A program made the translations under genes and the position numbers. This document shows, piece by piece, positions 7,528 to 37,158 of a stretch of 64,000 nucleotides of DNA. Source of the stretch: an uncultured Alphaproteobacteria bacterium (lineage in GTDB: Bacteria; Pseudomonadota; Alphaproteobacteria; RF32; CAG-239); contig CAKQDU010000003.1 in assembly GCA_934229625.1 (NCBI GenBank), positions 64,426 through 128,425 on the forward strand. The letters run 5' to 3'. The first letter of the stretch is position 1; each line of letters opens with the position of its first letter. The notes beneath the pieces are model-generated. The model was not told the origin of the DNA, searched no databases, and worked only from the letters and a program-made list of their open reading frames with translations.

Positions 7528-7601
7528 TGCTTCATCGTCTAATGGTAGGACAGCGGATTCTGACTCCGTCAATCTTGGTTCGAGTCCAGGTGAAGCAGCC
7601 A
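7528..7601 (+). tRNA. tRNA-Gln (anticodon CUG)
   Basis: Cloverleaf folded by hand. The U1:A72-type acceptor (tgcttca / tgaagca) matches the E. coli tRNA-Gln pattern. Anticodon loop ttCTGac, T-loop cttgg-ttcgagt-ccagg, discriminator G, encoded CCA. Confidence 0.85.
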
Positions 7602-7650
7602 ATTTGATAATATCTCCCTGATTTTTGGGAGATTTTTTTTGTAATTTTTC
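7585..7650 (+). repeat. attL: direct repeat covering the tRNA-Gln 3' end plus downstream sequence
   Basis: A 66-bp segment (the last 17 nt of tRNA-Gln plus its terminator region) recurs at 18646..18710. The only differences are 2 mismatches/indels in the T-runs. Confidence 0.85.
7613..7640 (+). terminator. Rho-independent terminator after tRNA-Gln
   Basis: tctccc-tgattttt-gggaga followed by T8. Confidence 0.65.
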
Positions 7651-7773
7651 TAAAAAACAGCAAAAAAACGGCTGATACACTATAGTGATACACCAAAGGA
7701 ATTTTCAGCACTTCCCCCTGTTTTATGTTTTTATGAATCACCGCAATACTTATCCACAGAAAAGGATTGCATT

Positions 7774-9543
7774 TTGAACGGTCATTCGGGATTATATTTA
7801 AGAGGCTCAAACTATTATTTCAGAGGCAAGATTCCAACATATCTGCATTATCTTGCTCCTACAAAATATATCTTACATTCTCTAAAAACTAACAATTACC
7901 GGAAAGCAGTGATTGAATGTCGCAAAGAAAGTTATAAACTGGGCATAGAAATAGAACTTTTAGGGAATATTGATATGCTTATCAAAAGTGGACGAATTGT
8001 TTTAGATAAGTCGGACATAGACAATATAATCATTTATAAACTGAATCAACTTACCGAAGATTTAGAAAACAATTATGATGATATTATGCTAAAACAATAT
8101 GATAAGAATAAAACGCTCGTTTTCAAAGATATTAAAGATGATGAACTAACGCAAAATAAAAAAGACGCGCAAAATATTGAAGGTGTCTTTAAAGAATATA
8201 TTACAGACTTAAAGGACAGACCTGGTACCCACCATAATGTTATTAAGCAAATCAATAAGATACTTAAAGACAATATATCTCTGATGAACGATATTTCCGA
8301 AATAAAAAGTACGCAAAAAGAATTATATAGTGCTATGCGTGGTGTCGACAAATACATCAATGATATGTTTAACTGTATGGAAAATGATGCCAATCAAAAC
8401 ACTTGGACACATCCGCGCGTAAAAGATTGTATTGCCATTATGAATGCGCAAAAAAGTGAACAATGCAAAAATAACGCCTTTAAAACACCTTGGAAAGATG
8501 TGTTTGCCGAATATTTACTGACAAAAAAGCGGCAATCAATCAAACAATTAAATGAGAAAAGCCTGAAGAAAGAAGAAACTTGCATTGATACTTGTTTTAA
8601 ACTTGTAAAGAAAAGTTATGTTGAAGACTTGAATTACAAAGATTGCAAAAAGGTTTCCAGAGACATTTTTAATCTTCCGAAAAAATGGGAAGAAAAGAGC
8701 CTCAAAAAAGGCATATCATTAGAGGAGATGTTAGCACAAGAAAATGAAGACCACATTTCATATTCCACCGCCAAAGGATACTTAATAATATTCCGAAACT
8801 TTTTAATTTATTGCAAGAAAAATCACTATATTGATACAGTATTATATGAAGAAGTTGATATTCCAAAGCCTAAAGATAAGCATTGCAGAGCCGGATTTAG
8901 CGAAAATGAACTAATTAAAATATTTAACCCTAAAACATATCCGAAAAGGATTAGTATTGATAGGTTCCATAATTTCTACATTCCGTTAATAGCCCTTTAT
9001 TCCGGTATGAGATTGGGAGAAATCTGTCAACTCTATGTTTCTGATGTGGTAAAATACGGCAAAAATCTATACTATTTTAATATTACAGATGAAAGAAAAG
9101 ACCAACATTTAAAAACAAAGCAATCAAAACGAATCGTTCCAGTACATCCGATGCTTTTGAGTATGGGATTTTTAGATTTAATAAAACAAGCCAAAGAAAA
9201 GCAAGAAGAACGGATATTCTATAAACTGAAATACTCTGTCAAGAATCACTATGTCAATGCTGTCAGCAACTGGTTTCAATATTATAGCAAGAAGATTGGA
9301 ATTGATGACCCTGACAAAGTATTTCACAGTTTTAGGCATACGGCAAAACAACATTTAAGGGATTGTGGCGTTCCGCAGGAATATCAAAATGCCCTTTGCG
9401 GGTGGAAAGGTACCGACACCGGAGAAACCTCATACGGTGGAAATGTCCCGTTTGAAAAACTATATGAGTATATTTCTATGCTACAATATCCATTTTTAGA
9501 AAAGACACTAAAGAAATTAAAGAAACAGAATAAAATCAAATAA
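7774..9543 (+). CDS. int: Tyrosine recombinase / phage-type integrase
   Basis: N-terminal arm-binding-type motif GLYLRGSNYYFRGKIP. C-terminal catalytic region with R...HSFRHT...Y (RHRY tetrad). Confidence 0.85.
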   Translation: MNGHSGLYLRGSNYYFRGKIPTYLHYLAPTKYILHSLKTNNYRKAVIECRKESYKLGIEIELLGNIDMLIKSGRIVLDKSDIDNIIIYKLNQLTEDLENNYDDIMLKQYDKNKTLVFKDIKDDELTQNKKDAQNIEGVFKEYITDLKDRPGTHHNVIKQINKILKDNISLMNDISEIKSTQKELYSAMRGVDKYINDMFNCMENDANQNTWTHPRVKDCIAIMNAQKSEQCKNNAFKTPWKDVFAEYLLTKKRQSIKQLNEKSLKKEETCIDTCFKLVKKSYVEDLNYKDCKKVSRDIFNLPKKWEEKSLKKGISLEEMLAQENEDHISYSTAKGYLIIFRNFLIYCKKNHYIDTVLYEEVDIPKPKDKHCRAGFSENELIKIFNPKTYPKRISIDRFHNFYIPLIALYSGMRLGEICQLYVSDVVKYGKNLYYFNITDERKDQHLKTKQSKRIVPVHPMLLSMGFLDLIKQAKEKQEERIFYKLKYSVKNHYVNAVSNWFQYYSKKIGIDDPDKVFHSFRHTAKQHLRDCGVPQEYQNALCGWKGTDTGETSYGGNVPFEKLYEYISMLQYPFLEKTLKKLKKQNKIK

Positions 9544-9598
9544 TAATTTATTGATTGTTCAGGATTAAAATTCTTTAAGGAAGAAATTTTCCCAAATA

Positions 9599-11923
9599 TC
9601 ATTTTTTAATTTCAAAAGAATATATGGCATTTTGTTCATATATAATATCTAAAAAAGATGACATTGTTATAGATATTTCTTTATTTGTTGTATATTCAGG
9701 ATTAAATAAATCATCAAATTTTTTATCACCCTTTAACTCTATTTCTTTTACTTTCATATCTTTTACACCTGTTTTGCATAAACTAACTTTACTTTTATCA
9801 ATAAATAAAATTGTATTTTTTTTAGCAAAATTTTTATGAAATAAATAATCATCTTTACTAACGTTTATTGTTCCATTTCCAATTTTTATTTTCTCCGCTC
9901 CTATCGGTGCATCATTCATAATTATTCGTTCTATTGGAAAGGCTTTTAATAAAATAGCCTTAGCAGCACTAAAGTTGGTTATAATACAATAATCCGATAA
10001 ATTTTGTGCTGTAATTTCATCAACTGATGAAATTTTTTTTGATATACTTCGTAATTTTTGAAAAAGTTGCCCATACATTTTTTCTTCTAACATACGATAT
10101 ATTTGTTGTTCAAAATCATCATATACTATCAAACGCCCTTTTTCTTTAGTTATTGTAATATTTCCTAAAGCCATTTTGAGAGCAATTGCAGGTATTTCTT
10201 TTTTAACTCCAAATATCCTATTTATAACATTGTCTGGCACTAAAGCATCATACAAATCTTGTTTCAACTCTTTAATTTCAGATATTTGTTTTTGAGATAA
10301 TTTTGAGTTCAAAATATTTTTTCTTCTCATATCCATTTTTTGATGTAATAAGATGATTTGGCCTATTATATAATTTTTATAACTATCATTTATTTGAAAT
10401 GTACTTACAAGTTCTTCATTAGAAAAGAAATCATCCAGAATTTTTTTTATTTTTTCTATATTATTTAAATAGTTAAAAAATAACTCTTCATTAGTTAAAT
10501 GATTAACAAAATCTTGAGAACTATTAGAATATCTACTTATTTCAGTTTGTATATATTGTTGTCTAAAATCATTAACATTCAATTGTTTTAATTTATCCAT
10601 TTTATCTTTTGCATTACACAAAAAAATGAATAGTGTATAAAATATATATCTTTCCGATTGTTGATTTTTACTAAATACCTGATTCTGAGAAAATGAAGAA
10701 TCTTTGCATAAATAACAATTAAATATTTCATCAATATAACGAGGCATTTGCGGGAAACTATATTCGGAATGATTTTCTTTAGGTGTTTCATAATACATAT
10801 AATCGTATGCTTCCTTATACTTACCTTTATATATTAAATATGAAATTATTTGAGTATTCAACTTCAACATCTGTATTTTATCTATTTCGTCAGAATGTAT
10901 ATAATTCTTTATAATATCTTGCCACAATGTTAGTAAACTAAACGGAAAATTATCGTCAATTAGTACTGTAATTACTTGAAAAACTATCACATTTGGGTGC
11001 ATAAGTTTTCTATTTACATTATCTATAATATTAGGAAAAACATTTTTGTAATATTTATTCAGAATATAATAAAAATCAAATAATGATATTATATCATCAT
11101 GTGAAATATTACATTTATCTAATTTATACATAAATTTTTGTACACAACTTTTTATAATTGCGTCTTCAACATAAAATGAATTTGTATGCTTCCACTTTAA
11201 TAACGCGTTATCTAATAATTCATATTGCATAGTAAAAATAATATTTGCAATTTCTTGTTTAGATAAATTAACCCCACGTTGAAAAATATAAGTCATAATT
11301 TCCAATGGTCTAAAGAGATATTCATTTTCTCTATTTAAGCATACAAAATTATGCTCAAATTTATGCTCATTCCAACTAATATTGTTTTTAAATATATCGT
11401 ATATATATGTAGTAGCGGTCGTAAACAAACTTAAATCGTCTTGATATTGTATTGAGTGAATAGCAATCATTTGTAATAATTCTAAATCTTCATTTTTTGC
11501 ATCAGGTGTTAATACAATATTTTTCACTTTGAAGATTTCTTCAGGATTATTGTAATATTGATATAAGATTCTAAAAGAATAATAACTGAAACATATACTA
11601 AATATAGAAAATATAAAGTTTGGTATCAGTATCAATATATAATATTCACTATCCAATAAAGGCAATAATATTATAGAAAATAAATTTATAATTAAAGTAG
11701 ATGTAATAAACTGAAAGTAATAATGTATATAAAATTTTTTATCTAATTTTGTTATAAAAATTTGCGATATATCTTTAAGACTTTTTGTCGTTTCAAATAT
11801 TTTAGGATAAACAAAAGCAACTAACCCAATATTGATAGTTAATAAGGCTGTTAATATAGTTAAAATATCATCTAAAGAAATCACAGATTGATTTTCATAA
11901 AATAGTTGAATTGACATTTGCAA
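9599..11923 (-). CDS. Large hypothetical protein (774 aa): N-terminal multi-pass membrane region plus a large soluble domain
   Basis: Hydrophobic helices in the first ~130 aa (ILTILTALLTINIGLVAFVY..., LIINLFSIILLPLL..., ILILIPNFIFSIFSICF). No Walker or other catalytic motif recognised. Very AT-rich. It lies directly downstream of the MTase-nuclease pair on the same strand. Confidence 0.5.
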   Translation of the reverse strand: MQMSIQLFYENQSVISLDDILTILTALLTINIGLVAFVYPKIFETTKSLKDISQIFITKLDKKFYIHYYFQFITSTLIINLFSIILLPLLDSEYYILILIPNFIFSIFSICFSYYSFRILYQYYNNPEEIFKVKNIVLTPDAKNEDLELLQMIAIHSIQYQDDLSLFTTATTYIYDIFKNNISWNEHKFEHNFVCLNRENEYLFRPLEIMTYIFQRGVNLSKQEIANIIFTMQYELLDNALLKWKHTNSFYVEDAIIKSCVQKFMYKLDKCNISHDDIISLFDFYYILNKYYKNVFPNIIDNVNRKLMHPNVIVFQVITVLIDDNFPFSLLTLWQDIIKNYIHSDEIDKIQMLKLNTQIISYLIYKGKYKEAYDYMYYETPKENHSEYSFPQMPRYIDEIFNCYLCKDSSFSQNQVFSKNQQSERYIFYTLFIFLCNAKDKMDKLKQLNVNDFRQQYIQTEISRYSNSSQDFVNHLTNEELFFNYLNNIEKIKKILDDFFSNEELVSTFQINDSYKNYIIGQIILLHQKMDMRRKNILNSKLSQKQISEIKELKQDLYDALVPDNVINRIFGVKKEIPAIALKMALGNITITKEKGRLIVYDDFEQQIYRMLEEKMYGQLFQKLRSISKKISSVDEITAQNLSDYCIITNFSAAKAILLKAFPIERIIMNDAPIGAEKIKIGNGTINVSKDDYLFHKNFAKKNTILFIDKSKVSLCKTGVKDMKVKEIELKGDKKFDDLFNPEYTTNKEISITMSSFLDIIYEQNAIYSFEIKK

Positions 11924-12026
11924 ACCTGTATTATTATTTAATCCTATTACATAATATAAAAAAACACCACCTATACAAGCAACAGGTAATGTTTTTTAAC
12001 AAATATCTTTTTATTTTACTTAAATT

Positions 12027-13127
12027 CTACACATCACTTTTGCGTCGGTTGCAGTCTCGGCATAACATTTGGCAATTATCTATTGTTGTATGTCCACCTT
12101 TTGCGTACGGCGTAATGTGGTCTGCTTCCATTTCTGAAATATCAAAATGCTTGCCGCACTTTTTACAATTTCCGTTTTGCCTTTCATAGACAGTTCTTTT
12201 TTCACTATCCTTAAATGCTCTAATACTTAAACATTTTTCATCGCCCGACAGCACATATTCATATATACCCTTTTTAGAAGTTATCTCATCAAATTCATCT
12301 TTCATAAGTGTAGAAATCTGTTCTTCAATTTTTTTAGGGTCTAAATCTGCATCTTTATACTTGTTATATAACAGTCCCCACTTTTGACCTTTCATCTCTT
12401 TTCGGTATTTAGTGAAGATTGTTTCTATCCAATTTATTACTGATTGATAATATTCTTTAAGTTCTCTGGCTGTATGCTCTTGTTGGTGTATTCCCATATA
12501 ATCATCAATAGATTTAATGCCGTCTCTTTGCCTTATCCAATCTAAAACAGTTTCCAGATAGTCTTGCCTTATTGGTGTGCCGGTCATATATTTTTCACCA
12601 ATTTTATACGCTATGCAATTAGACTTACTAAAATATTTTTTAGCATCACTTAACCATTCACCGGTAAAGATAGCGTTTCTTAATTCTTGGTCAGTTAATT
12701 CTATTCCGGCAATATTGATTATTTTAAACCAATCCAATTTTTCACTATCCTTTCCCTCGCAAATATAAACCATCAATTCATAGTCCAATATTTTATCTTG
12801 TTCATCATTTTGCAGAGTATAGAAAAATTTACCATCTACAGAGAAATTACCTTCTAAATATTCGCAAATACTTATTGTTCGCTGCTGACCGTCAAGGAGT
12901 TCATAAGTACCATCTTCATTTAGACACCAATACATAACATTTAGAGGGAAACCTTTTTTGACAGTATTGATTACTTCTATCTTATTTTTATCGCCATAAA
13001 TATATTCTCTTTGGTATTTTGGTCTGATATTTAATTTGCCGCTATAACCGACAACCCCTTCTTCATCATTGTTTATATAACCGTCATAAACATCTCTGAT
13101 TTTGATTCTGTGTAATTCAATCTTCAT
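12027..13127 (-). CDS. DUF262 (ParB/GmrSD-like N-terminal domain) plus C-terminal HNH nuclease
   Basis: N-terminal IRPKYQREYIY and LLDGQQRTISI motifs are typical of DUF262. The C-terminal region CKKCGKHFDISEMEADHITPYAKGGHTTIDNCQMLCRDCNRRKSD is a canonical HNH (His-Me) motif. Confidence 0.7.
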   Translation of the reverse strand: MKIELHRIKIRDVYDGYINNDEEGVVGYSGKLNIRPKYQREYIYGDKNKIEVINTVKKGFPLNVMYWCLNEDGTYELLDGQQRTISICEYLEGNFSVDGKFFYTLQNDEQDKILDYELMVYICEGKDSEKLDWFKIINIAGIELTDQELRNAIFTGEWLSDAKKYFSKSNCIAYKIGEKYMTGTPIRQDYLETVLDWIRQRDGIKSIDDYMGIHQQEHTARELKEYYQSVINWIETIFTKYRKEMKGQKWGLLYNKYKDADLDPKKIEEQISTLMKDEFDEITSKKGIYEYVLSGDEKCLSIRAFKDSEKRTVYERQNGNCKKCGKHFDISEMEADHITPYAKGGHTTIDNCQMLCRDCNRRKSDV

Positions 13128-13128
13128 A

Positions 13129-14217
13129 TTATTTTTTCCTTCTAATTAAAACTCTGGCGTAAATGCTTGAATATAATTCCCCTGTTTCTACATCTTTAAA
13201 TGCTGGCGTTTTATCTTTAATTTGATTAAATTTTCTATAAAGAGTACCTTTCGCATTATATGTGAATTTTCCTGTCCCATTTCCATTTTTATCTAATATT
13301 TCCATCTTTTTATTATTAGTAAATTCGCAACTTCCAACTATTCCTAAATCAACAATTTCAAATTGGTCAGGACTATACTTATCTAAAAATGTAATAGGTA
13401 CCCCCATCACTCCATCATAATCCATAGGTATATCACTTGTTTTATCTACATTGATAGCATTATAATTTTCGTAATGAGGATATTCTTCCGGTGTATATTT
13501 TTTATATAAATCTAAATCTTCGTGTCTTTTTGTTGTTTCAATATTTGTATACCATACAACACCTGAAACACGAATCATTCCTTCTTTATGGTCTCCGGCT
13601 GTTGCATAATCTTCATAATATGGATTGATAAAATGTCCTGCACCACCTTTAAAGCCATATCCTAACCATATCTTGTTTTCTTTTATAAGTTTGAATATTT
13701 CCCTATATGTAATAGCATTTTGATGTCCTATAATTAAAAATTTTTTATTATATTTAATCAACTGTTCTACATACTCTCTAAACAATGAAAATGGTGGATT
13801 TGTAATAACAACATCTGCTTCTTTTAATAATTCAATACATTCATCACTTCTAAAATCACCATCACCCTTTAGAGACTTAACGCCAATTTCTTCTATATCA
13901 GGTACCCTGTTGCTATTTTTATCACCATAATATTCCAAATATACCGCTTGTTCGCTGTCATTTTGAGAAAATAAATCCATATTTTTGTTTTTATAACAAG
14001 TAGTAATCAGTTTTTTCAAACCTAAATGTTCAAAAGAATAACTGAAATAATGAAAAAAATTACTAACCCGCGGGTCATCACAATTACATAAAACAGTCTT
14101 GCCTTTTAAAAATGATTTGTAATGTTTCAGTTCATTTTCAATATCACAAAGTTGAGTATAAAACTCATCTTTTTTATTTCTTTTCGCTTGTTTTAAATTG
14201 TCATTTGCCATCTTCAT
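13129..14217 (-). CDS. N6-adenine DNA methyltransferase, EcoRI-methylase family
   Basis: From memory, the N-terminus (KQAKRNKKDEFYTQLCDIENELKHY...CDDPRVSNFF) and the motif IV VVITNPPFSLFREYVEQLIKYNKKFLII match M.EcoRI-type methylases. The stop is 1 nt from the start of the nuclease gene, so the two form an operon. Confidence 0.65.
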   Translation of the reverse strand: MKMANDNLKQAKRNKKDEFYTQLCDIENELKHYKSFLKGKTVLCNCDDPRVSNFFHYFSYSFEHLGLKKLITTCYKNKNMDLFSQNDSEQAVYLEYYGDKNSNRVPDIEEIGVKSLKGDGDFRSDECIELLKEADVVITNPPFSLFREYVEQLIKYNKKFLIIGHQNAITYREIFKLIKENKIWLGYGFKGGAGHFINPYYEDYATAGDHKEGMIRVSGVVWYTNIETTKRHEDLDLYKKYTPEEYPHYENYNAINVDKTSDIPMDYDGVMGVPITFLDKYSPDQFEIVDLGIVGSCEFTNNKKMEILDKNGNGTGKFTYNAKGTLYRKFNQIKDKTPAFKDVETGELYSSIYARVLIRRKK

Positions 14218-14236
14218 AAATGTCCGTTTATGAAGA
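14211..14236. promoter_or_regulatory. 26-bp hix-like palindrome overlapping the MTase start codon
   Basis: TCTTCATAAATG-TC-CGTTTATGAAGA: 11/12 matching half-sites around a 2-bp core. The MTase ATG (14215-14217, minus strand) lies inside it. Confidence 0.4.
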
Positions 14237-14311
14237 CATTCAAATAAGTATTTTTAATATCTTTATTTGAATCTTTGGAACAGCACGGATTTCCTCAGAT
14301 TTATTTTATTC

Positions 14312-14339
14312 TTGCAACTAAATTGCTATGTGTTATTAT
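14312..14339 (+). promoter_or_regulatory. Sigma70-like promoter (TTGCAA-16-TATTAT) inside a segment bracketed by an 11-bp inverted repeat
   Basis: ttgcaa ctaaattgctatgtgt tattat. It lies between the 11-bp inverted repeats at 14220-14230 and 14360-14370, and points toward the recombinase gene at 14425. Confidence 0.35.
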
Positions 14340-14424
14340 GCTAAAAAATTTATATCAACTAAACGGACATCTATTTTATATAGTCTTTTGATAAATACTT
14401 ATGTAATATCAAAGGATTATTAAA

Positions 14425-15021
14425 ATGATTTATTCTTACATTAGAGTCAGTTCAGACCAGCAAAATTGCGCCAATCAAAAATATGAGGTGGAATGTTATG
14501 CCGCTAAAAATAACATAACCATTAATGAGTACATTGAAGAAACAATATCTTCCAGAAAACCGCTTAAAGACAGAAAATTAGGCAAATTATTAAATAAACT
14601 TTCAAAAGGAGATATTGTTATCAGTACCGAAATATCCAGACTTGGGCGAAATATGTTAGAGGTTATGGGAATTTTACAAACTTGTTTAGAAAAAGATTGT
14701 GAGATAATAACCATAAAAGAAAACTATCATCTTGGGGCGGATATTCAGTCCAAAGTTTTGGCGTTTGCATTTTCTCTTGCCGCTGAAATTGAGCGTCAAC
14801 TTATTTCTCAACGCACAAAGGAATGCCTTAAACGCTTAAAAAATGAGGGTAAACATCTTGGCAGACCTTATGGTTTTACATACAAAAAACTAAAAAAGAA
14901 ACACAATAAGATAATTGATTTACTTAATAAAAAAGTATCCAAAGCGGAAATTGCTCGGCTGATGGGGTGTTCGTGGGCAACATTGCATAGATACATTAAA
15001 GAATGCTGTATAATCTCTTAG
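14425..15021 (+). CDS. Serine recombinase (resolvase/invertase family)
   Basis: N-terminal catalytic motif YIRVSSDQQ. Resolvase core ...LGRNMLEVMGIL.... C-terminal HTH (AEIARLMGCSWATLHRYIK). Confidence 0.8.
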   Translation: MIYSYIRVSSDQQNCANQKYEVECYAAKNNITINEYIEETISSRKPLKDRKLGKLLNKLSKGDIVISTEISRLGRNMLEVMGILQTCLEKDCEIITIKENYHLGADIQSKVLAFAFSLAAEIERQLISQRTKECLKRLKNEGKHLGRPYGFTYKKLKKKHNKIIDLLNKKVSKAEIARLMGCSWATLHRYIKECCIIS

Positions 15022-15575
15022 TGTGCTTGTTTATTCAAATATCCATAAACAGTCGGGCGTGTAATGTTAAATTGTCGGGCAATTTGGGCTATCGGTAAAC
15101 CTTGGTCGGCAAGTTTATTCAATTCTGCAACTTGCGCATCTGACAGTTTATTTTTACCGCCTTTGTATTTACCTTTTGCTTTAGCAATAGCCACGCCTTC
15201 TCTTACACGTTGATTGATGAGTTCTCGTTCCAACTGTGCTACCGCGCCAAGCATTGTCATCATCAGTTGTTGGTACGGGTCTTTTTTATCTGGAGAAAAA
15301 GTCAAATTCTCCTTATGAAAAATAACAGTCGCTCCGAGTTTGTTAATTTCTTCCACCAGATTCAACAAATCACGCGTGTTTCGTGCTAATCTATCCATTG
15401 AATGCACATTTACAATGTCGCCTTGTCTTAAATTGCTCATCATTGCCTGCAATTCCGGTCTATCGGTATTCTTACCCGATAATTTGTCTTCATATTCTCT
15501 ATCGCACGCAACGCCGGCTAATTGTCTTTCCGTATTTTGCACAACAGTTGAAACTCTTTTATAATTAAAAATCAT
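15018..15575 (-). CDS. Serine recombinase, Hin/Gin/Pin-like DNA invertase
   Basis: YKRVSTVVQNTERQ catalytic region, DRLARNTRDLLNLV, C-terminal HTH IAQIARQFNITRPTVYGYL. 185 aa. Overall similarity to the Gin/Hin family. Confidence 0.8.
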   Translation of the reverse strand: MIFNYKRVSTVVQNTERQLAGVACDREYEDKLSGKNTDRPELQAMMSNLRQGDIVNVHSMDRLARNTRDLLNLVEEINKLGATVIFHKENLTFSPDKKDPYQQLMMTMLGAVAQLERELINQRVREGVAIAKAKGKYKGGKNKLSDAQVAELNKLADQGLPIAQIARQFNITRPTVYGYLNKQAH

Positions 15576-15790
15576 AGTAAAGTCCTTTTATGTAAAATCA
15601 TCATTTATAATGCTATTTTACATTACTCAAAAAGTGTAAAATTGTCAAGCATTTTAGTTTACATTTTACACTTTTATAAATGTATATTCTGACTACTGTC
15701 TGATTTTCCATTTTTCTAATAATGATTCATTATATTTTAAAAAGAATCGCGTATTATGCTACTAATTAAAAATATCAAAAGGCTTATACA

Positions 15791-16780
15791 ATGGAACAAC
15801 AAGGCGAAATCATTATTTACCAGTCGGCTGACGGCAAAAATAAACTGGATGTAAAATTAGAAAATGAAACTGTTTGGCTTTCTCAATCTCAATTAGTTGA
15901 CTTATACCAAACCAGCAAATCAAACATCAGCGAGCATATAAAAAATATTTTTAATGAGGGTGAACTATCGGCCGATTCAGTTGTTCGGAAATTCCGAACA
16001 ACTGCCGCAGACGGTAAAAATTATTCAACGCAATTTTACAATCTTGATATGATTATTTCCTTAGGGTACCGCATAAAGTCTTCTATTGCCACCCAGTTCC
16101 GCATTTGGGCAACCGAACGCATAAAGGAATATATCATCAAAGGATTTACCATTGATGACGAACGTTTAAAACAAAACGGCGGCGGAAATTATTGGAAAGA
16201 ATTGTTAGACCGCATCAGAGATATCCGCTCCTCTGAAAAAGTTTTATACCGTCAGGTTTTGGATTTATACGCCACAAGTTATGATTATAATGCCAAAGCA
16301 CCGGAAACTATTGAATTTTTTAAAGTTGTCCAAAATAAATTACATTTTGCCGCGCACGGTCATACAGCATCAGAAGTTATATATGAACGTGCAAATGCCG
16401 ATAAGCCTTTTATGGGATTAACCACATTTTCCGGCGACCTGCCAACTAAAGCCGAAGCCAAAATTGCTAAAAATTATTTAAGCGAAAAAGAATTAAAGGT
16501 GCTGAACAATCTTGTTTCCGGATATTTTGACTTTGCAGAAATCTATGCCGTTCGTCACGAACATTTATATATGAAAGATTATCTTAAACAGTTAGACAAC
16601 ATTTTATCGGCAACCGGAGAAAACGTCTTACAAGGCGCAGGTAAAATCAGTCATCAAAAAGCAATGGAAAAAGTTGAGGCTGAATATAAAAAATATCAGG
16701 AAAAGACCTTAACTCCGATAGAACAAGCATATTTGGAAAACTTGAAAAGTTTGGAAAAAAAGATAGAAGACAAAAAATAA
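15791..16780 (+). CDS. rhuM: RhuM-family protein (virulence-associated / Fic-neighbourhood DNA-binding protein)
   Basis: N-terminal IIYQSADGKNKLDVKLENETVWLSQSQLVDLYQTSKSNISEHIKNIF...YNLDMIISLGYRIKSSIATQFRIWATE. Characteristic RhuM-family block. Confidence 0.7.
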   Translation: MEQQGEIIIYQSADGKNKLDVKLENETVWLSQSQLVDLYQTSKSNISEHIKNIFNEGELSADSVVRKFRTTAADGKNYSTQFYNLDMIISLGYRIKSSIATQFRIWATERIKEYIIKGFTIDDERLKQNGGGNYWKELLDRIRDIRSSEKVLYRQVLDLYATSYDYNAKAPETIEFFKVVQNKLHFAAHGHTASEVIYERANADKPFMGLTTFSGDLPTKAEAKIAKNYLSEKELKVLNNLVSGYFDFAEIYAVRHEHLYMKDYLKQLDNILSATGENVLQGAGKISHQKAMEKVEAEYKKYQEKTLTPIEQAYLENLKSLEKKIEDKK

Positions 16781-16825
16781 ACGCTTTTTTTTGATTTTCA
16801 GAGAATGTTTATCCATTACCAAAAA

Positions 16826-16875
16826 TCTAAAAAGCGGGGTTTGCGGAAAATAAAAGTAGGAAATAACAAAAAACA
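16826..16875. repeat. 50-bp direct repeat, copy 1 (copy 2 at 18748..18797)
   Basis: atctaaaaagcggggtttgcggaaaataaaagtaggaaataacaaaa compared with atctaaaaagcggtgttggcgtaaaataaaagtaggaaataacaaaa. Each copy is followed by a different hairpin. Confidence 0.6.
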
Positions 16876-16940
16876 GCACATTTCTGCGCTGTTTCATACA
16901 ACATTTGTAAAAGACTTCAATTTGTTTTTCACATAAGTAT

Positions 16941-17504
16941 TTATCTTGCCGGATATAAAATTGCACCGCGGTCAATTAAATAATTCGCAATATCCAACTC
17001 CATTTTTGCCAAAGCCGTGGTTAGCGGTGTTTGTGCCTGAACATTTAGCCAATTTATGTCCGCTCCCTCATTTATCAAATATGCCACGCCATTCAATTTT
17101 TGTTCTTTCGTCATATTATCATTTAATATCAACAAAATAAGCGCATTATTTCCAAACACATCAGTACGATATACAGAGGCTCCGTTATTCACTAAAAACT
17201 CCGGAATTTCCATATCCGTACACATATAACATGCCATTAAAAATAGTGAAGCGTGGCGGGCATTTATGGAATCATCTATGTTAAAATCTGGATTTTCTTC
17301 CAACATATTTTTGATTTCATCCATATCGTTAATGTTAAAACACTCGTCAACTTCATCATTATAAGGACGATAAACCGGAACTGTCTTCAAGCGTTTTTCT
17401 AAAGCGTCTAATTTTTTACGAATAGCCGGAAGTTGTTCCACCGGCACATATTTAATATAAGTATTATCAAAATTTGCGTTCATATACTTCCCCTTTGCTT
17501 TCAA
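16941..17504 (-). CDS. Hypothetical protein with C-terminal ankyrin repeats
   Basis: ...NGASVYRTDVFGNNALILLI...VAYLINEGADINWLNVQAQTPLTTALAKMELDIANYLIDRGA: 2-3 ankyrin repeats. Confidence 0.55.
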   Translation of the reverse strand: MKAKGKYMNANFDNTYIKYVPVEQLPAIRKKLDALEKRLKTVPVYRPYNDEVDECFNINDMDEIKNMLEENPDFNIDDSINARHASLFLMACYMCTDMEIPEFLVNNGASVYRTDVFGNNALILLILNDNMTKEQKLNGVAYLINEGADINWLNVQAQTPLTTALAKMELDIANYLIDRGAILYPAR

Positions 17505-17632
17505 TTATATTTATTGGCAAAACCAACACCAGCCGCAAAATATAAAAAAGACACCGAATAAAATCCGATGCCTTATATAAAAGATAAAAGTTCTACGTCG
17601 AAAGCATATCAACGCATAACTATTTATCCTCT

Positions 17633-18199
17633 TTATACCGCCTTTTTGAATATTTTACTGTTTATATATGATGGTGTTTCAATCCTCTTTTTATTGAAAT
17701 GCATGTCTTTTTCACAATCGTTGGAATTTATATAATCCAAGCATTTATCAATATCATATATGGCTTCAAATTTGTGAGAGGCTTTCGGATAAATGTCTTT
17801 AAACAGCCTTTGAATAAAGCCTAAAAATATGGATAATTCAGTAATATCTAAACAATTGATGATAAAATGTATATGATTTGATTTACCCTTTTGTTTTTCA
17901 ATAATTCCGGTCCAGTTGAACTGCAAATGTTTTAACTTTATCCATTTGCTACCATATTTCCACCTGTAATATCTTGCTAATATATATTTGAAATCATCTT
18001 CTAACTTAACTTCATCTACACCACAGTTGGGCTGAAGAGTGATAAACCATCGTCCGTTATTTGTTGTCAATGTTTTTGGCTTGTCAACATTCATATCAAT
18101 ATAGGTTGATTTTAATTTTCTCATCATTGATAATGGTTCTTGTGTAATTCTGTTCTGAAAAATATTGTGTATCATTGTTTTACAATCCTCTAATGCCAA
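17633..18199 (-). CDS. HUH-superfamily endonuclease-like protein (rolling-circle Rep / TnpA-like), 188 aa
   Basis: Three motifs in order: WFITLQPN (Rep motif I, FLTLT-like), SNHIHFIIN (HUH motif II), and SYINSKIFKK (Y-x3-K motif III). It is the last gene inside the island, just before attR. Confidence 0.45.
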   Translation of the reverse strand: MALEDCKTMIHNIFQNRITQEPLSMMRKLKSTYIDMNVDKPKTLTTNNGRWFITLQPNCGVDEVKLEDDFKYILARYYRWKYGSKWIKLKHLQFNWTGIIEKQKGKSNHIHFIINCLDITELSIFLGFIQRLFKDIYPKASHKFEAIYDIDKCLDYINSNDCEKDMHFNKKRIETPSYINSKIFKKAV

Positions 18200-18645
18200 T
18201 AATAAAATAAGAAAATTTAGCCAAAGTTTTTAATTCACCATTATTTTTTAAGGGTGTCATATTTTCTCTATTTTTGAGGTCTTTGCTAATACAAAGTAGG
18301 CATCTGCCATTCAGCGTATTATGCTTAAAGCATCTCTAACATCGGGAAGATAATGTTTAAAGATGCCATCTTCCCTTTGATATTTATTATGCCATATTAC
18401 ACTTTTTTATTGCAAAAATAAAATTAGTATTAGTGGTTAAAAATAATATTGACAAATAGAAATTTTTAAATACGGCAATACATCTGAAAAAAACATCAAT
18501 TCATAAAAATCAAAAAAAGCCTTGACGACTTATTTATCCTATGTTATTTGATTAAAAGTACTTATACACTTATTGACAATGTATTGTTAAGATTTAATAA
18601 AAATATAAAGCAATATCAGAGTGATGTTTAATTTTTAACTGGTCT

Positions 18646-18710
18646 TCCAGGTGAAGCAGCCAATTTGATAATATCTCCCTGATTTTTTGGAGATTTTTTT
18701 GTAATTTTTC
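18646..18710 (+). repeat. attR: copy of the tRNA-Gln 3' end plus terminator region
   Basis: tccaggtgaagcagccaatttgataatatctccctgatttttt ggagattttttt gtaatttttc. See attL. Confidence 0.85.
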
Positions 18711-18747: not shown

Positions 18748-18797
18748 ATCTAAAAAGCGGTGTTGGCGTAAAATAAAAGTAGGAAATAACAAAAGGA
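18748..18797. repeat. 50-bp direct repeat, copy 2
   Basis: See the feature at 16826..16875. This copy is immediately followed by the hairpin aaaggacc-tgaaaataata-ggtccttt. Confidence 0.6.
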
Positions 18798-18818
18798 CCT
18801 GAAAATAATAGGTCCTTT

Positions 18819-19094
18819 AAAATTATGTTGTTTACGTACCAATTCTGTAACAGCCTCACGCCATAAGTCAACCGCAAAATCAAAGCGTTATTATGATCGA
18901 AAGTGTGTAAAAAAAACGACCGTTTAAAATGGACAGTTTTTCGGCTGTTTTTTGCAGTATATCATAATTTATGAAAAATGCAATAACATTATAATTTTAC
19001 GCTATTTTTTATTGATTTTCAGATGTTTTTCCGCCTCCGATTCCGTTGTGTAAAAATAACGGTCGTTTTTTTTACACAATTGAGGAGGAATAAG
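18819..19094 (+). repeat. Conserved ~260-bp upstream cassette, copy 1 (copy 2 at 36148..36426)
   Basis: Module Y (aaattatgttgtttac...taacagcctcacgccataagtcaaccgcaaaatcaaag) plus module Z, ending in the Shine-Dalgarno site and ATG of the downstream gene. About 85% identical to copy 2 apart from a diverged central part. Confidence 0.8.
18904..19078. promoter_or_regulatory. Perfect 21-bp inverted repeats (TGTGTAAAAAAAACGACCGTT / AACGGTCGTTTTTTTTACACA) flanking a 133-bp segment
   Basis: Left arm at 18904-18924, right arm at 19058-19078. The identical arms recur at 36235-36255 / 36390-36410 around a 134-bp partially diverged spacer. Confidence 0.7.
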
Positions 19095-20480
19095 ATGTTT
19101 AACTATTTGAAAAAATATAACATATTCTGTAGTTTAAAGCTTTTTGTAGTTTTGTATGCAGTCAGTATGTTTTCTATTTCTGCGGAAGCCAAAATTTGTT
19201 TTTTACCGGACAGCAGCTGCGGCACCGGTAAAATAAGTTCCGTAAAGCCAAACCCGTCGCAATGTATTTATAGCAGCATGGCTCAAGCCCAAAATGGCAT
19301 ATCAAGCTGCGAAAAAGCGTATAAGCAAAATTTCTGCTTTTACAGACGCTGCAAAACCGAAGACAATAATATATTTGCAGACGAAGCAAGCTGCAAAAAG
19401 AAAGCCAAAGCTGATAATTTAATCTGCGTAAGCTGCGGCGGCTGCTATAAAGTTACGCCGAAAACATGCCCGAGTGGGTACACGGCAGGCTTAACCACCT
19501 GTGCGGAAAAAGCCGGCTATACTGCAAGTTATTCAAGCAACGGCTATGCCGGATATAGTGTCTGCGGCAAGTGCAAATATACCATAAAACCGTGTGAAAG
19601 CGGCTATACGGTAGGTTTGGCCAGCTGTCCGGAAAAACAAGGTTATACTTCGAACTATTCCCGAAACGGAGTTTCCGGCGAGCAGGTTTGCGGCAAGTGC
19701 GACTACACGGCAAAAGGCTGCGCCAGCGGTTATACGGCTGGTTTGACAAGCTGCAGCGAACGGCGCGGCTATAATGCAAGTTATGCCAGCAATGGGTATG
19801 CCGGGGAGTTGGCTTGCGGCAAGTGCGACTACACGGCAAAAGGCTGCGCCGGCGGTTATACAGCAGGTCTGACAAGCTGCAGCGAACGGCGCGGATATAA
19901 TGCAAGCTATGCCAGCAACGGGTATTCCGGCGAGAAAATTTGCGGAAAATGCGACTACACGGCAAGAACTTGTCCAGATGGATATTCTACAAAATATAGC
20001 AGCGTCAGCGCCTGCGGAGAAACAGGAAGCAACGGCTGGAATTATGCTAGCAACGGCTATTCTGGGGAAGCTGTGTGCGGAAAATGTACAAAGAAACCAT
20101 GTCCTAGTGGGTATTATTATTGGTTATATAGTGAAAATATTAAAGATATGTTTAAAAGACCTTGCAATACAAGTACAAGATGTCCGGCAGATAGCGGATA
20201 TTATGAATATTATGAATCTCCAGGGTTTGGTGTCTATTATAATATGTGTAAAAATTATGGCTTTTGGGGGAGAGTTGCCGGTCGTAGCGGAGATGGTATT
20301 TGTTTTAAGACGGGCGATCGTCCTTGTCCTAGTGGTACAATAGGAGGTGGTGCTTCTAAGGCAAGTGAATATTGTGAAAAGACTTATGGTAAAAAATACA
20401 GATATAGATATAGAGAGGTAAAAAATCCAGATGGTAGTGATATGTGTACAGGTTATGAGCATTGTTGGAAATGTTATTGA
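19095..20480 (+). CDS. Secreted cysteine-rich tandem-repeat protein (461 aa from the ATG at 19095)
   Basis: Strong Shine-Dalgarno site gaggagga before ATG 19095 (the ORF-track start at 19023 is a non-ATG start upstream). Signal peptide MFNYLKKYNIFCSLKLFVVLYAVSMFSISAEA. At least 6 copies of a ~40-aa unit: CGKCDYTAKGCASGYTAGLTSCSERRGYNASYASNGYAGE. Confidence 0.75.
   Translation: MFNYLKKYNIFCSLKLFVVLYAVSMFSISAEAKICFLPDSSCGTGKISSVKPNPSQCIYSSMAQAQNGISSCEKAYKQNFCFYRRCKTEDNNIFADEASCKKKAKADNLICVSCGGCYKVTPKTCPSGYTAGLTTCAEKAGYTASYSSNGYAGYSVCGKCKYTIKPCESGYTVGLASCPEKQGYTSNYSRNGVSGEQVCGKCDYTAKGCASGYTAGLTSCSERRGYNASYASNGYAGELACGKCDYTAKGCAGGYTAGLTSCSERRGYNASYASNGYSGEKICGKCDYTARTCPDGYSTKYSSVSACGETGSNGWNYASNGYSGEAVCGKCTKKPCPSGYYYWLYSENIKDMFKRPCNTSTRCPADSGYYEYYESPGFGVYYNMCKNYGFWGRVAGRSGDGICFKTGDRPCPSGTIGGGASKASEYCEKTYGKKYRYRYREVKNPDGSDMCTGYEHCWKCY
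19690..19930. repeat. Two near-identical tandem 120-bp DNA repeats inside the Cys-rich gene
   Basis: The run gcggcaagtgcgactacacggcaaaaggctgcgcc...gcaagttatgccagcaatgggtatgccgg is repeated with about 6 substitutions. Confidence 0.8.
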
Positions 20481-35304: not shown

Positions 35305-35970
35305 CTATTTTTTAAAACGAAATACAACATTGCATATATTGGTATTTCTTAGACACTCTTTACAGCTTTCGGTTATTTCAGGCATTGTAAGGTCTTTTAG
35401 GCATTTATACGTATCGTCATATTCTTCCATGTTTTGACATTCTGTAATAAAATGCGGAGCCGTTTTTCCTCCAGATGAATGAGAAGTGTTTTGTGGTGAA
35501 ATAAAATCTATACTACTATACATACCTTTAGCTAAATCTTTAATCAATGTAATGCAAAGTTCTTTTGAATAATCGGAAGATTTTTTATCATTGCTGAAGA
35601 TATTGATATCTACAATAAGAGTATTTTTTATGTTTATATATGGTGCCACTTTGTTTCCTAAAGTATCGGTTATATATATATTTGTAACTTCTTGCCATGT
35701 TTGAGGTACAAAGTTTAAGTCTTTTATAATTTGAGCTAAATACATAGGACGTTCTTTGTTATTTTTGATTAAATCATCTTTATACGATAATAAATCAGTA
35801 ATCATAAAACTATATTCTTCTATTGTTTTATTGACCTTAAATTTTTCCATAGCTTTGGAATATCCAGCGATACCGCCGACTGATAGAACGGCAATAATTG
35901 CCAGTACGCCGAGCATTTCTATCATAGAGCGTCCCACGCTGCAAACGTTATTGCGAGCAACGCGAAGCAA
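35305..35970 (-). CDS. Prepilin-like secreted protein, paralog 2 (start uncertain)
   Basis: ...SGLLRVARNNVCSVG|RSMIEMLGVLAIIAVLSVGGIAGYSKAM. C-terminal Cys framework (C...KCLKDLTMPEITESCKECL...CN). The ORF-track start is TTG. Confidence 0.6.
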   Translation of the reverse strand: MLRVARNNVCSVGRSMIEMLGVLAIIAVLSVGGIAGYSKAMEKFKVNKTIEEYSFMITDLLSYKDDLIKNNKERPMYLAQIIKDLNFVPQTWQEVTNIYITDTLGNKVAPYINIKNTLIVDINIFSNDKKSSDYSKELCITLIKDLAKGMYSSIDFISPQNTSHSSGGKTAPHFITECQNMEEYDDTYKCLKDLTMPEITESCKECLRNTNICNVVFRFKK

Positions 35971-36096
35971 TCCAGACCCCTTTATAGAGTTGCTACTGAA
36001 TGTGTTATTTTCGAATGTGTGATTTTTTGCGCCAAACTCTGCAAAAACACGCTGAGCGGCGAAAAATGCGCCTTTAATCAGATGTTTAGGATTTGC

Positions 36097-36110
36097 AGAG
36101 AGAGAGAGAG
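36097..36110. repeat. (AG)7 dinucleotide tract upstream of pilin-like 2
   Basis: Same module as 35167..35180. The same upstream mini-ORF and ATG (36132-36134 on the minus strand) are one repeat unit out of frame with the pilin-like 2 reading frame. Confidence 0.9.
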
Positions 36111-36147
36111 ACCTTTGAATAGCTTATTTTTCATCTTTCTTTCCTCT

Positions 36148-36426
36148 AAAATTATGTTGTTTACACTCCAATTCTATAACAGCCTCACGCCATAAGTCAA
36201 CCGCAAAAATCAAAGTGTTTTTTTAGGTTAAAAGTGTGTAAAAAAAACGACCGTTTAAAATGGACAGTTTTTAGGCTGTTTTTTATAGTCTAGCAAAGGT
36301 TGCCGGAATTTGCAATAACTTTTTATATTTGCGATGTTTTTTGCTGTTTTTACAACATTTTATTGCCGTCTGTTTCGCTGTGTAAAAATAACGGTCGTTT
36401 TTTTTACACAATTAAGGATAAATAAG
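36148..36426 (+). repeat. Conserved upstream cassette, copy 2, carrying the 21-bp inverted repeats (36235-36255 / 36390-36410)
   Basis: See copy 1 (18819..19094). It ends in the Shine-Dalgarno site aaggataaataag and the ATG of pilin-like 3. Confidence 0.8.
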
Positions 36427-37158
36427 ATGTTTAAGAGTATAGAATTTTTCAAAGGAAAGAGCAGGGGCGTGGGGTTTGGATTGCTTCGTCGTTACACTCC
36501 TCTCAATGACCTTTGCAGCGTGGGACGTTCCATGATAGAAATGCTCGGAGTTTTAGCCATTATCGGAGTGCTGAGCGTAGGCGGTATCGCCGGATATTCT
36601 AAAGCCATGATGAAATGGAAAATAAACAAAATGATAGAAGATTATACCATGCTGATGACTGGTTTAATGGAATATCAGGAAAGTTTATTTAAAACATATG
36701 CAGATTATGACAATAGATTTTTGGCTCAGTTTATTATAGACGCTAAACTGGTGCCGGAAACTTGGAAACAGGAAAATGAGTATTCGATAAATGATTCTCT
36801 TGGCAACAGAATTACACCATATGTTGATACAAAAGAAACAGGTGCTGCATTTACTGCTGATATATACATTGTGCCAAATGGAATAAATAAAGATTCGGAA
36901 TATGCTTATCAACTATGCGTAGCTTTAGCAAAAGATGTTGTTTATCCGCTAGCTGCAAATATGGGGTATGCATCATTATTTATTACAAATGATGCAATTA
37001 CTAACAGAAGTGGCTATATGGTTTATGCAAATAGTTGTTCCGATGCGGAAGTTAACAGGGTGAAATGTCTGTCGGAAATGACGTTGGCGGAAATTAGTAC
37101 AATCTGTAAATCCTGTGTAAAAAAAGCTCCTTGCAATGTTGGAATGAGTTGGAGATAA
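36427..37158 (+). CDS. Prepilin-like secreted protein, paralog 3
   Basis: ATG with Shine-Dalgarno site. MFKSIEFFKGKSRGVGFGLLRRYTPLNDLCSVG|RSMIEMLGVLAIIGVLSVGGIAGYSKAMMKWKINKMIEDY. C-terminal Cys framework ...C..L.KD....C...KCLSEMTLAEISTICKSCVKKAPCNV. Confidence 0.7.
   Translation: MFKSIEFFKGKSRGVGFGLLRRYTPLNDLCSVGRSMIEMLGVLAIIGVLSVGGIAGYSKAMMKWKINKMIEDYTMLMTGLMEYQESLFKTYADYDNRFLAQFIIDAKLVPETWKQENEYSINDSLGNRITPYVDTKETGAAFTADIYIVPNGINKDSEYAYQLCVALAKDVVYPLAANMGYASLFITNDAITNRSGYMVYANSCSDAEVNRVKCLSEMTLAEISTICKSCVKKAPCNVGMSWR

Follow-up and report, generated by a model that had tools for sequence, protein, structure and literature searches.

Two short cassettes, A and B, lie directly upstream of a gene for a secreted cysteine-rich (Cys-rich) repeat protein and of a prepilin-like gene in a 64,000-nucleotide stretch of DNA from an uncultured alphaproteobacterium. 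This whole stretch is called the window here. In public assemblies the DNA of cassette A occurs in both orientations, and real DNA inversion is likewise seen at three other loci of the same cassette family. We propose, with a probability of roughly 0.8, that these cassettes are invertible promoter modules flipped by an Mpi-family serine recombinase (Mpi, master DNA invertase). As such they would be Mpi-type invertons outside the Bacteroidales and a new instance of a known design.

Each cassette would consist of two inverted 32-bp sites round a core of ~141 bp that carries one promoter. A small Mpi-family serine recombinase would bind both sites, cut their central dinucleotides and rejoin the ends after strand exchange. 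The core would thereby flip and the flanks would stay as they are. We infer from sequence that the enzyme is of the serine/Mpi type, as well as which paralogue acts, where the promoter lies and points, and what a flip does to expression.

Crossover sites, inversion alleles and the cassette family

Both cassettes contain perfect 21-bp inverted repeats, TGTGTAAAAAAAACGACCGTT and AACGGTCGTTTTTTTTACACA, at 18904-18924 and 19058-19078 in cassette A and at 36235-36255 and 36390-36410 in cassette B. They enclose 133 bp (A) and 134 bp (B), just as a first-pass annotation of the window had described for the two copies. At three mismatches or fewer the arm matches six times in the window; 0.02 matches are expected from shuffles, and no shuffle reached six. 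Each arm is part of a 32-bp dyad site comprised of a 15-bp half, an asymmetric 2-bp centre and another 15-bp half. The gene-side site S2 (TGTGTAAAAATAACG-GT-CGTTTTTTTTACACA) is a near-perfect palindrome. Because the right arm is half of this larger site, the local hairpin that had been noticed there is accounted for. The far site S1 reads TGTGTAAAAAAAACG-AC-CGTTTAAAATGGACA. The central dinucleotides AC and GT of S1 and S2 are mutually inverted and lie 143 bp (A) or 144 bp (B) apart, centre to centre. By analogy, 32-bp dyad sites with asymmetric centres have the anatomy of serine-invertase crossover sites. Across the family the outer half-sites are invariant, and the inner halves are of two types: the gene side has the 'P' type (TGTGTAAAAATAACG), the far side the 'M' type (TGTCCMTTTTAAACG). 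In the following list and throughout, L-numbers such as L198 are labels of fetched loci or contigs.

18904-18935: S1 of cassette A, AC centre at 18919-18920; outer half perfect, inner half M-type
18921-19061: invertible core of cassette A, the stretch between both central dinucleotides; its reverse complement reproduces L198
18925-18955: M1 of cassette A, a conserved stretch directly inside S1 (TAAAATGGACAGTTTTTCGGCTGTTTTTTGC)
19047-19078: S2 of cassette A, GT centre at 19062-19063; near-perfect palindrome
36235-36266: S1 of cassette B, AC centre at 36250-36251; identical to S1 of cassette A
36252-36393: predicted invertible core of cassette B; its sites are identical to those of loci shown to flip
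36379-36410: S2 of cassette B, GT centre at 36394-36395

The cassette A locus occurs in both orientations with its flanks unchanged. The flipped allele is carried by L198, a 66.6-kb contig from a public gut metagenome (sample ERZ27286957) that was found through contigs carrying the upstream neighbour gene (17633-18175, minus strand). The flanks of L198 match the window at 99.7-100% one way and a 178-bp core matches in the other orientation. When 18921-19061 of the window is reverse-complemented, the result equals L198 with 0 mismatches over the cassette and both flanks; the two differ at only six positions, all farther into the coding region. The recombinase-type invertible switch that the first-pass annotation had suggested is thus supported by an actual flipped allele. 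The annotation had proposed a search for the flipped forms of 18925-19057 and 36256-36389. Run on assemblies, this search succeeded for cassette A (L198) and returned only the window orientation for cassette B. In the same sample ERZ27286957, cassette B (L206) stands in the window orientation while cassette A is flipped, and the two switches are therefore set independently. The junction string diagnostic of locus A is TGTGTAAAAATAACGGTCGTTTTTTTTACACAATTGAGG in the window state and TGTCCATTTTAAACGGTCGTTTTTTTTACACAATTGAGG in the flipped state.

Three further loci of the family yield inversion alleles. At a locus by a tRNA gene and an acyltransferase-like gene, L190 differs from L108, L065, L140, L185 and L008 only by inversion of the core; L108 and L190 show 2 mismatches in 356 positions after in-silico inversion, and in L190 the half-site types change sides as exchange at the centres predicts. 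In the CAVGVF genome the core of L057 is the reverse complement of the paralogues L095 and L101 (109/111) with unchanged flanks. Two CAVEOB cores (L050 and L014) are similarly inverted with respect to L035, again with unchanged flanks. An inverton beside an SR1-type recombinase gene (the P0030 locus; SR1 is described below) gives L207, which after inversion equals L211 with 0/170 mismatches. The bins CAVKTH, CAVEOB, CAVGVF and CAVIDY are labelled Bacteroidaceae, [Ruminococcus] gnavus or Eubacteriales and have cassettes and genes in common with Alphaproteobacteria metagenome-assembled genomes (MAGs); these bins are probably mislabelled or mixed. Contig breaks were also considered as evidence of flipping. 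Breaks do cluster at the cassettes, and several contigs start or end exactly at an arm boundary, yet the breaks spread over 0-90 nt around the cassettes. They were dropped as evidence because such a spread is expected for any multi-copy repeat.

The repeats recur far beyond the window, as the annotation had thought worth checking. A scan of species-representative genomes with a degenerate half-site gave at least 98 stretches, and a second scan of metagenome contigs gave 90 more. Nearly all matches listed among the species representatives come from human-gut MAGs titled 'uncultured Alphaproteobacteria', and a few bins are evidently mislabelled. The MAG CAKQRZ has at least 25 complete cassettes of paired sites and 9 further sites, the MAG CAKQUG has 10 cassettes, and all loci fetched contain about 100. 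In every paired cassette other than a few of mirror polarity, an AC-centred site is followed by a GT-centred one, and 86 of 93 unique cassettes keep the 143/144-bp spacing. Conservation of both sites is at least 97% over 74 unique cassettes, M1 (~30 bp inside S1; columns at 80-100%) and a central block TGCAATAACTTTTTATAT are conserved as well, and the segment adjoining S2 varies freely. The gene behind S2 is either prepilin-like (MLKSIEFLRGKSRG...G|RSMIEMLGVLAI) or of a Cys-rich 'CFLPD' type, and in ~80 copies S2 ends 16 nt 5' of its start codon.

Five cassettes (L013, L033, L058, L111 and L182) have the mirror polarity, GT...AC. Their reading as recombination products was dropped, and they are read as the same module with both sites in opposite polarity. 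The GT...AC cassette of L013 (3348-3534) sits between two divergent Cys-rich CFLPD genes, each of which starts 32-33 nt from a site. In L010 (1455-1660) the inverted repeat grows to 37 nt and takes in the RBS (ribosome-binding site) region at either end (CTTACGGAGGAACAAT); the M side has a gene of 404 aa, the P side only a decayed start (ATA), and the locus looks like the remnant of a two-gene toggle.

The inversions could be real and still happen in the absence of a dedicated serine invertase, by homologous recombination or template-switching between the 21-32-bp repeats, or through a tyrosine recombinase. Any perfect inverted repeat can occasionally recombine, the enzyme is linked to the cassettes by association, and the window does encode a tyrosine recombinase. 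We nevertheless regard this as quite unlikely. The AC...GT dyads, the strict 143/144-bp spacing and the 32 bp that are near-invariant over ~100 copies argue for recognition by a protein, Mpi-family genes directly adjoin sites of the same design, and the tyrosine recombinase lies by tRNA-Gln in a repeat-bounded island whose integrase it probably is.

Two other explanations can be set against the same alleles. The repeats might act mainly as an RNA or operator element (a long-range stem in the 5' untranslated region, an attenuator or paired sites at which a dimeric transcription factor binds), and inversion would be a side effect. A transcript with both arms would fold into a 21-bp stem (z = -3.1), and an S2 hairpin would stand just before the RBS. 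This fold recovers only the trivial arm-arm stem that is due to the repeat itself, the arms are invariant and hence show no covariation, and from either candidate promoter the transcript would not contain both arms. A scan of the window against Rfam gave three tRNAs only, with no RNA family match in the cassettes. An RNA or operator role also fails to predict precise inversion alleles at four loci, and we consider it highly improbable. The cassette could instead be a miniature inverted-repeat transposable element (MITE) that has spread to many promoters and was inserted independently in opposite orientations; its terminal inverted repeats, small size and many genomic copies are what such an element would show. 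This is the least credible of the explanations weighed here. The flanks (...CGAAAG / ATTGAGG... at A, ...TAAAAG / ATTAAGG... at B) lack a target-site duplication, the distance to the start codon is a constant 16 nt in ~80 copies, conservation reaches beyond the repeats, and alleles of the same locus differ by inversion of the interior only, with arms and flanks identical to the base.

The annotation had also remarked that the arms stay perfect while the interior diverges, and a comparison of A and B by block bears this out. Identity is 100% over both 32-bp sites and 66% in the middle; it is 86% in the upstream block, 85% in the 20 bp next to the far site and 88% from the RBS to ATGTTTAA. The 260-bp cassette described there is indeed conserved and yet is not a single unit. 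In its upstream block, the left part (to ...GTCAACCGCAAAAAT) belongs to another repeat, which runs into other sequence in L197 and L203, and the invertible module proper begins ~20-25 nt outside S1. At this left part of the upstream "U" block (18880 and 36214 in the window), L197 and L203, from other samples, join unrelated sequence, the 3' end of another gene, and not a cassette. They would be rearrangements or alternative arrangements of paralogues whose end-points lie in U rather than in the recombination sites. The U block has a promoter-like minus-strand motif, TTGACT-18-(T/C)AGAAT.

Candidate invertases and the tRNA-Gln island

The window encodes two small serine recombinases, SR1 and SR2, and a diverged second inverton next to SR1. 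All of these lie in an island.

7602-18662: integrated island of ~11 kb, bounded by 17-bp tRNA-Gln repeats
14208-14382: diverged inverton between the EcoRI-type methylase gene and SR1, centres 143 bp apart
14208-14239: site S1' of this inverton, CCATCTTCATAAATG-TC-CGTTTATGAAGACAT
14351-14382: site S2' of this inverton, TATATCAACTAAACG-GA-CATCTATTTTATATA
14425-15021, plus strand: SR1, small serine recombinase and candidate invertase, probably a member of the Mpi (master DNA invertase) family
15018-15575, minus strand: SR2, Gin/Hin-like serine recombinase; less likely candidate

SR1 has the Pfam Resolvase domain together with a helix-turn-helix (HTH) domain. Its full length aligns with the NCBIfam model NF009949 ('master DNA invertase Mpi family') and scores 265.9 bits, slightly below the equivalog cut-off of 272; its homologue in L026 (MAG CAKQRZ) scores 293.6 bits and is above that cut-off. 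SR1 aligns with Gin from residue 1, including the N-terminal YxRVS motif whose RVS holds the catalytic serine. Its homologues form more than 100 clusters at 71-100% identity in alphaproteobacterial MAGs, and one of them (P0089) is named as Mpi family by NCBI. SR2 is closer to Gin (E = 1.8e-29 to PDB 4m6f, versus 1e-10 for SR1) and reaches only 56.6 bits with the Mpi model. No SR2 homologue was found near any other cassette. Of the two serine recombinases that the annotation had offered as invertases, SR1 has the full-length Mpi-family match, and SR2 looks Gin-like.

The annotation had also argued from the position of the recombinases 3.5 kb upstream of cassette A, and this argument fails. A 17-bp direct repeat, TCCAGGTGAAGCAGCCA, forms the tRNA-Gln 3' end at 7585-7601 and occurs again at 18646-18662. 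Because these 17 nt recur and the GC content falls in between (0.23-0.34 within, 0.37-0.42 past 18 kb), 7602-18662 is taken to be an integrated island. Its cargo includes a tyrosine integrase (7774-9543, 589 aa), an unannotated 774-aa open reading frame, a GmrSD/HNH gene, the EcoRI-type methylase, SR1, SR2, RhuM and two ankyrin proteins. Cassette A starts ~240 bp past the right end of the island. Since SR1, SR2 and the tyrosine recombinase are all island cargo, their closeness to cassette A is incidental. The tyrosine recombinase, listed earlier among the candidates, is probably the island's own integrase, judging from its position by tRNA-Gln inside the repeats.

What ties the SR1 clade to this inverton architecture is that sites of the same design adjoin SR1-type genes in L146, L176, L207-L217 and the window. 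The ~215-bp intergenic region upstream of SR1 contains inverted repeats 143/144 bp apart with an asymmetric far site (...NC-CGTTTAnnnnGGAGA) and mutually inverted centres, which read TC/GA in the window but CC/GG at the P0030 locus. In half-site sequence it departs from the pilin cassettes; the CGTTTAnnnnGGA(G/C)A half of M1 is common to both. A distal 'remnant site' upstream of SR1 had been put down to chance. Comparison of homologous loci overturned this, and the site is one arm of this separate inverton. The SR1-type inverton flips at the P0030 locus, where the segment occurs in both orientations (L207 2284-2500 versus L211 1-110); the window's own copy may do the same. The inverton may put the invertase, the restriction-modification (R-M) gene or both under phase variation. 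In L146, an SR1-type gene is preceded by a canonical S1 and, at a distance of exactly 144 bp from it, an SR1-type proximal site; L176 has a full site 26 nt 5' of such a gene. The SR1-type gene behind the hybrid cassette of L146 (5707-5853) has an internal stop after 48 codons, which marks either a pseudogene or a fault in the assembly.

At other loci, too, SR1-type genes belong to the cargo of islands, in the order restriction gene, ~215 bp, SR1-type gene, ankyrin gene and large serine integrase. Repeat pairs were searched for upstream of SR2 and of the L026-type Mpi gene, and none was found. For the pilin cassettes, the chromosomal homologue of the L026 type, which lacks such a switch, appears from sequence to be an equally good candidate. 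A bolder version of the model has the island-borne Mpi-family invertase, with its own expression set by the inverton that it shares with the R-M gene, act in trans on at least 25 chromosomal switches, ~40% of them two-gene toggles. We think this version unlikely. If it were true, an element gained by horizontal transfer could remodel the set of surface proteins of an uncultured alphaproteobacterium from the gut.

Probable promoter direction and output genes

The core offers a candidate promoter on each strand. These candidates and the genes around the two cassettes are as follows.

18956-18983, minus strand: candidate promoter of cassette A; -35 TTGCAT (18983-18978), 16-nt spacer, -10 TATACT (18961-18956)
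18968-18995, plus strand: alternative in cassette A, TTTATG-16-TATAAT
36287-36315, minus strand: candidate promoter of cassette B; -35 TTGCAA (36315-36310), 17-nt spacer, -10 TAGACT (36292-36287)
36300-36329, plus strand: alternative in cassette B, TTGCCG-18-TATATT, found by promoter scan
18792-18818, minus strand: hairpin AAAGGACCT...AGGTCCTTT then TTTTGTTATTT, with a 9-nt loop, read from the sequence
19079-20480, plus strand: RBS GAGGAGG and the gene of the Cys-rich repeat secreted protein (ATG 19095), 16 nt after S2 of cassette A
35305-35970, minus strand: prepilin-like paralogue 2, divergent from paralogue 3; its start is 264 nt beyond S1 of cassette B
36427-37158, plus strand: prepilin-like paralogue 3 with a 33-aa leader (G|RSMIEMLGVLAI), 16 nt after S2 of cassette B

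The minus-strand candidates face away from the Cys-rich gene (A) and towards paralogue 2 (B, where the promoter is preceded by ATATAAAAAGTTA) in the window state. The tRNA promoters of the organism are alike in build: AAAAAAGTTC-TTGCAT-17-TATAAG for tRNA-Asp, AAAAAAAGTC-TTGACA-17-TATTAA for tRNA-Leu and TTGACA-17-TATTAC for tRNA-Gln. The minus strand of the cassette, ATATAAAAAGTTA-TTGCAA-17-TAGA(T/C)T, fits this pattern (AAAGTTN-TTGCAW-17-TAT...). Over the 74 unique cassettes, conservation coincides with TAnAnT, the minus-strand -10. We therefore lean towards the minus strand as the probable direction. On that strand M1 would be conserved as a leader, and the S2-side segment, upstream of the promoter, would be free to vary. 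M1 is probably the leader of the transcript made after a flip, or else a site for an accessory protein. The 18792-18818 hairpin is likely to terminate leftward transcription from cassette A.

The promoter may instead lie on the plus strand, as TTGC(C/T)G-18-TATAWT, and the window would then be ON for the named genes and L198 OFF. This opposite polarity of the same module is a possibility that we take seriously and yet rate clearly below the minus-strand reading. It draws on the scan match TTGCCG-18-TATATT at 36300-36329, on a perfect plus-strand TATAAT in copy A and in PP-type cassettes, and on the motif facing the gene that starts 16 nt after the site in 82 of 89 classifiable cassettes. In copy A, as in other subfamilies, the plus-strand -35 is poor or lacking. 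No explanation is offered for the invariant TGCAATAAC, for the A-rich block or for M1, which a minus-strand promoter turns into its -35, an UP-like element and a leader. At least 25 variable surface genes would all be ON in the majority state, and a terminator-like hairpin of the minus strand lies left of cassette A.

If the promoter is on the minus strand, it most probably points away from the Cys-rich gene and from paralogue 3 in the window orientation. The outward promoter would then face the likely terminator at A and the divergent paralogue 2 at B. After a flip, transcription from it would cross the M1 leader and S2 and enter the RBS, 16 nt downstream. Thus the Cys-rich gene and paralogue 3 are probably both OFF in the window state, and L198 probably has the Cys-rich gene ON. 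One enzyme could in this way set many pilin-like and Cys-rich genes independently, at 25 or more loci per genome, and generate combinatorial variation of the surface.

The Cys-rich protein (19095-20480) has no Pfam or NCBIfam match. It contains about five tandem ~42-aa repeats (C..GYTAGLTSC.E..GY..SY.SNGY.GE..CGKCDYTAKG), and its CFLPD-type relatives follow cassettes at other loci. The downstream genes of the prepilin type have the motif G|RSMIEMLGVLAIIGVLS. Three prepilin-like paralogues score 10.8-12.6 bits with TIGR02532 (12.6 for paralogue 3), below the 16.3 cut-off, and none matches Pfam. In 24 of the 55 cassettes with enough flank, a divergent gene of the prepilin-like kind starts ~300 nt beyond S1; its leader is short and classical (MKQNQFG|RSMIEML...). 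Going by this geometry only, such two-gene modules may choose between opposed genes rather than turn one gene on and off, and paralogue 2 is a possible alternative output of the cassette B switch. The long leaders of near-side prepilin-like genes carry a recurring ...GLLR(R/S/F)(Y/A)..ND... stretch (36470-36510, 35950-35975 and many genes in L009-L100). It is encoded by palindromic, repeat-like DNA (ATTGCTTCG...CGCAATGAC / ATTGCGAGCAACGCGAAGCAAT) and looks like a hairpin-forming repeat inside the coding sequence. A (GA)n microsatellite (GAGAGAGAGAGAGAGA, 36097-36112) between paralogue 2 and cassette B recurs as the same tract in L003 and is a possible slipped-strand site.

Several points weigh against the model of promoter modules flipped by an Mpi-family enzyme. 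The alleles compared come from different samples or paralogues and from assemblies only, so within-population mixing and the rate of flipping are outside their scope. The assembled consensus is strongly one-sided, 82 versus 7 by motif-toward-gene count (89 classifiable cassettes). The flipped junction with a prepilin RBS flank had 0 matches in the metagenome collection that holds 90 family stretches, and cassette B was seen in the window orientation in all of L003-L007 and L202-L206. SR1 is part of the island's cargo, its Mpi score falls a little short of the cut-off, and the inverton that it has upstream uses other half-site sequences; a chromosomal paralogue, for example of the L026 type, may be the real enzyme. 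Any link between a recombinase and the cassette sites is suggested by association. The promoter direction is read from likeness to four tRNA promoters, the TTGCAA of the invariant block is palindromic and permits a promoter on both strands, and TTGCCG-18-TATATT also scores. Bacteroides Mpi sites may share an ARACGTWCGT-like core, and a likeness of the cassette sites to them is conjectural.

Relation to known inversion systems

The model would extend the principle of one master serine invertase with many promoter switches from Bacteroides capsules to uncultured human-gut Alphaproteobacteria. It implies wide phase variation and combinatorial variation of surface filaments or adhesins in organisms that are known only from metagenomes. 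Existing read sets can be searched and tallied for the exact sites, the junction sequences and the strings diagnostic of each orientation. There is also a practical issue, as such switches fragment assemblies. An invertase found on a mobile island together with its own switch and R-M genes offers a lead on how such regulons spread.

Repeat-flanked promoter segments near surface-associated genes are known from the PhaseFinder, PhaseFinderDC and DeepInverton catalogues of gut bacteria, and the cassettes resemble them in this. The catalogues group invertons by repeat motif and link them to nearby invertases, with emphasis on Bacteroidota, Akkermansia and Firmicutes (PMC11892184, PMC11602134). No description of an alphaproteobacterial inverton family with pilin-like targets was found in the literature searched, which is a limited collection and no proof of novelty.

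The Hin, Gin, Cin and Pin systems with their hix and gix sites share the inverted dyad sites, A-tract half-sites and asymmetric 2-bp core. They also share a ~190-aa serine recombinase with a C-terminal HTH, and the recombinase gene adjoins a site. These systems invert ~1-4 kb, need a Fis-bound enhancer in cis and have 26-bp sites. Here, in contrast, a core of ~141 bp leaves no room for such an enhancer arrangement, the targets are many, and the sites measure 32 bp.

Clostridioides difficile cwpV and flgB and Escherichia coli fimS likewise place a short invertible regulatory segment directly 5' of a surface-protein gene. They are driven by tyrosine recombinases (RecV and FimB/FimE), and cwpV and flgB exert their effect once transcription has been initiated, at a promoter that lies outside the invertible segment. 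Site design and gene associations in the present family point instead to a serine recombinase and an internal promoter. Of the analogies drawn in the first-pass annotation, the Clostridioides cwpV/flg switches are thus the poorer, as a tyrosine recombinase acts there. The Bacteroides fin/Mpi promoters hold up well, with the Mpi-family match of SR1 and many targets that share one site.

The closest known system is the Mpi regulon (fin regions) of Bacteroides fragilis. There, Mpi is a single serine recombinase that flips 13 regions, among them seven polysaccharide (capsule) promoters (PMC4747536). The two systems probably have in common an NCBIfam recombinase family, dispersed short (<250 bp) segments, predicted here to bear promoters, with a common inverted-repeat site, surface structures as targets and switches that are set independently. 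They differ in the host, which by record titles and NCBI protein names is a gut alphaproteobacterium and not a member of the Bacteroidales; its genes have Shine-Dalgarno sites and TTGACA/TATAAT-type promoters. The targets here are prepilin-like and Cys-rich secreted proteins rather than capsule operons, with at least 25 per genome. Further differences from the B. fragilis regulon are the strict 143/144-bp spacing, the asymmetric M-type far site, the many modules that have opposed genes on their two sides, and an island-borne Mpi-family gene, the only one that the window has, with an inverton of its own.

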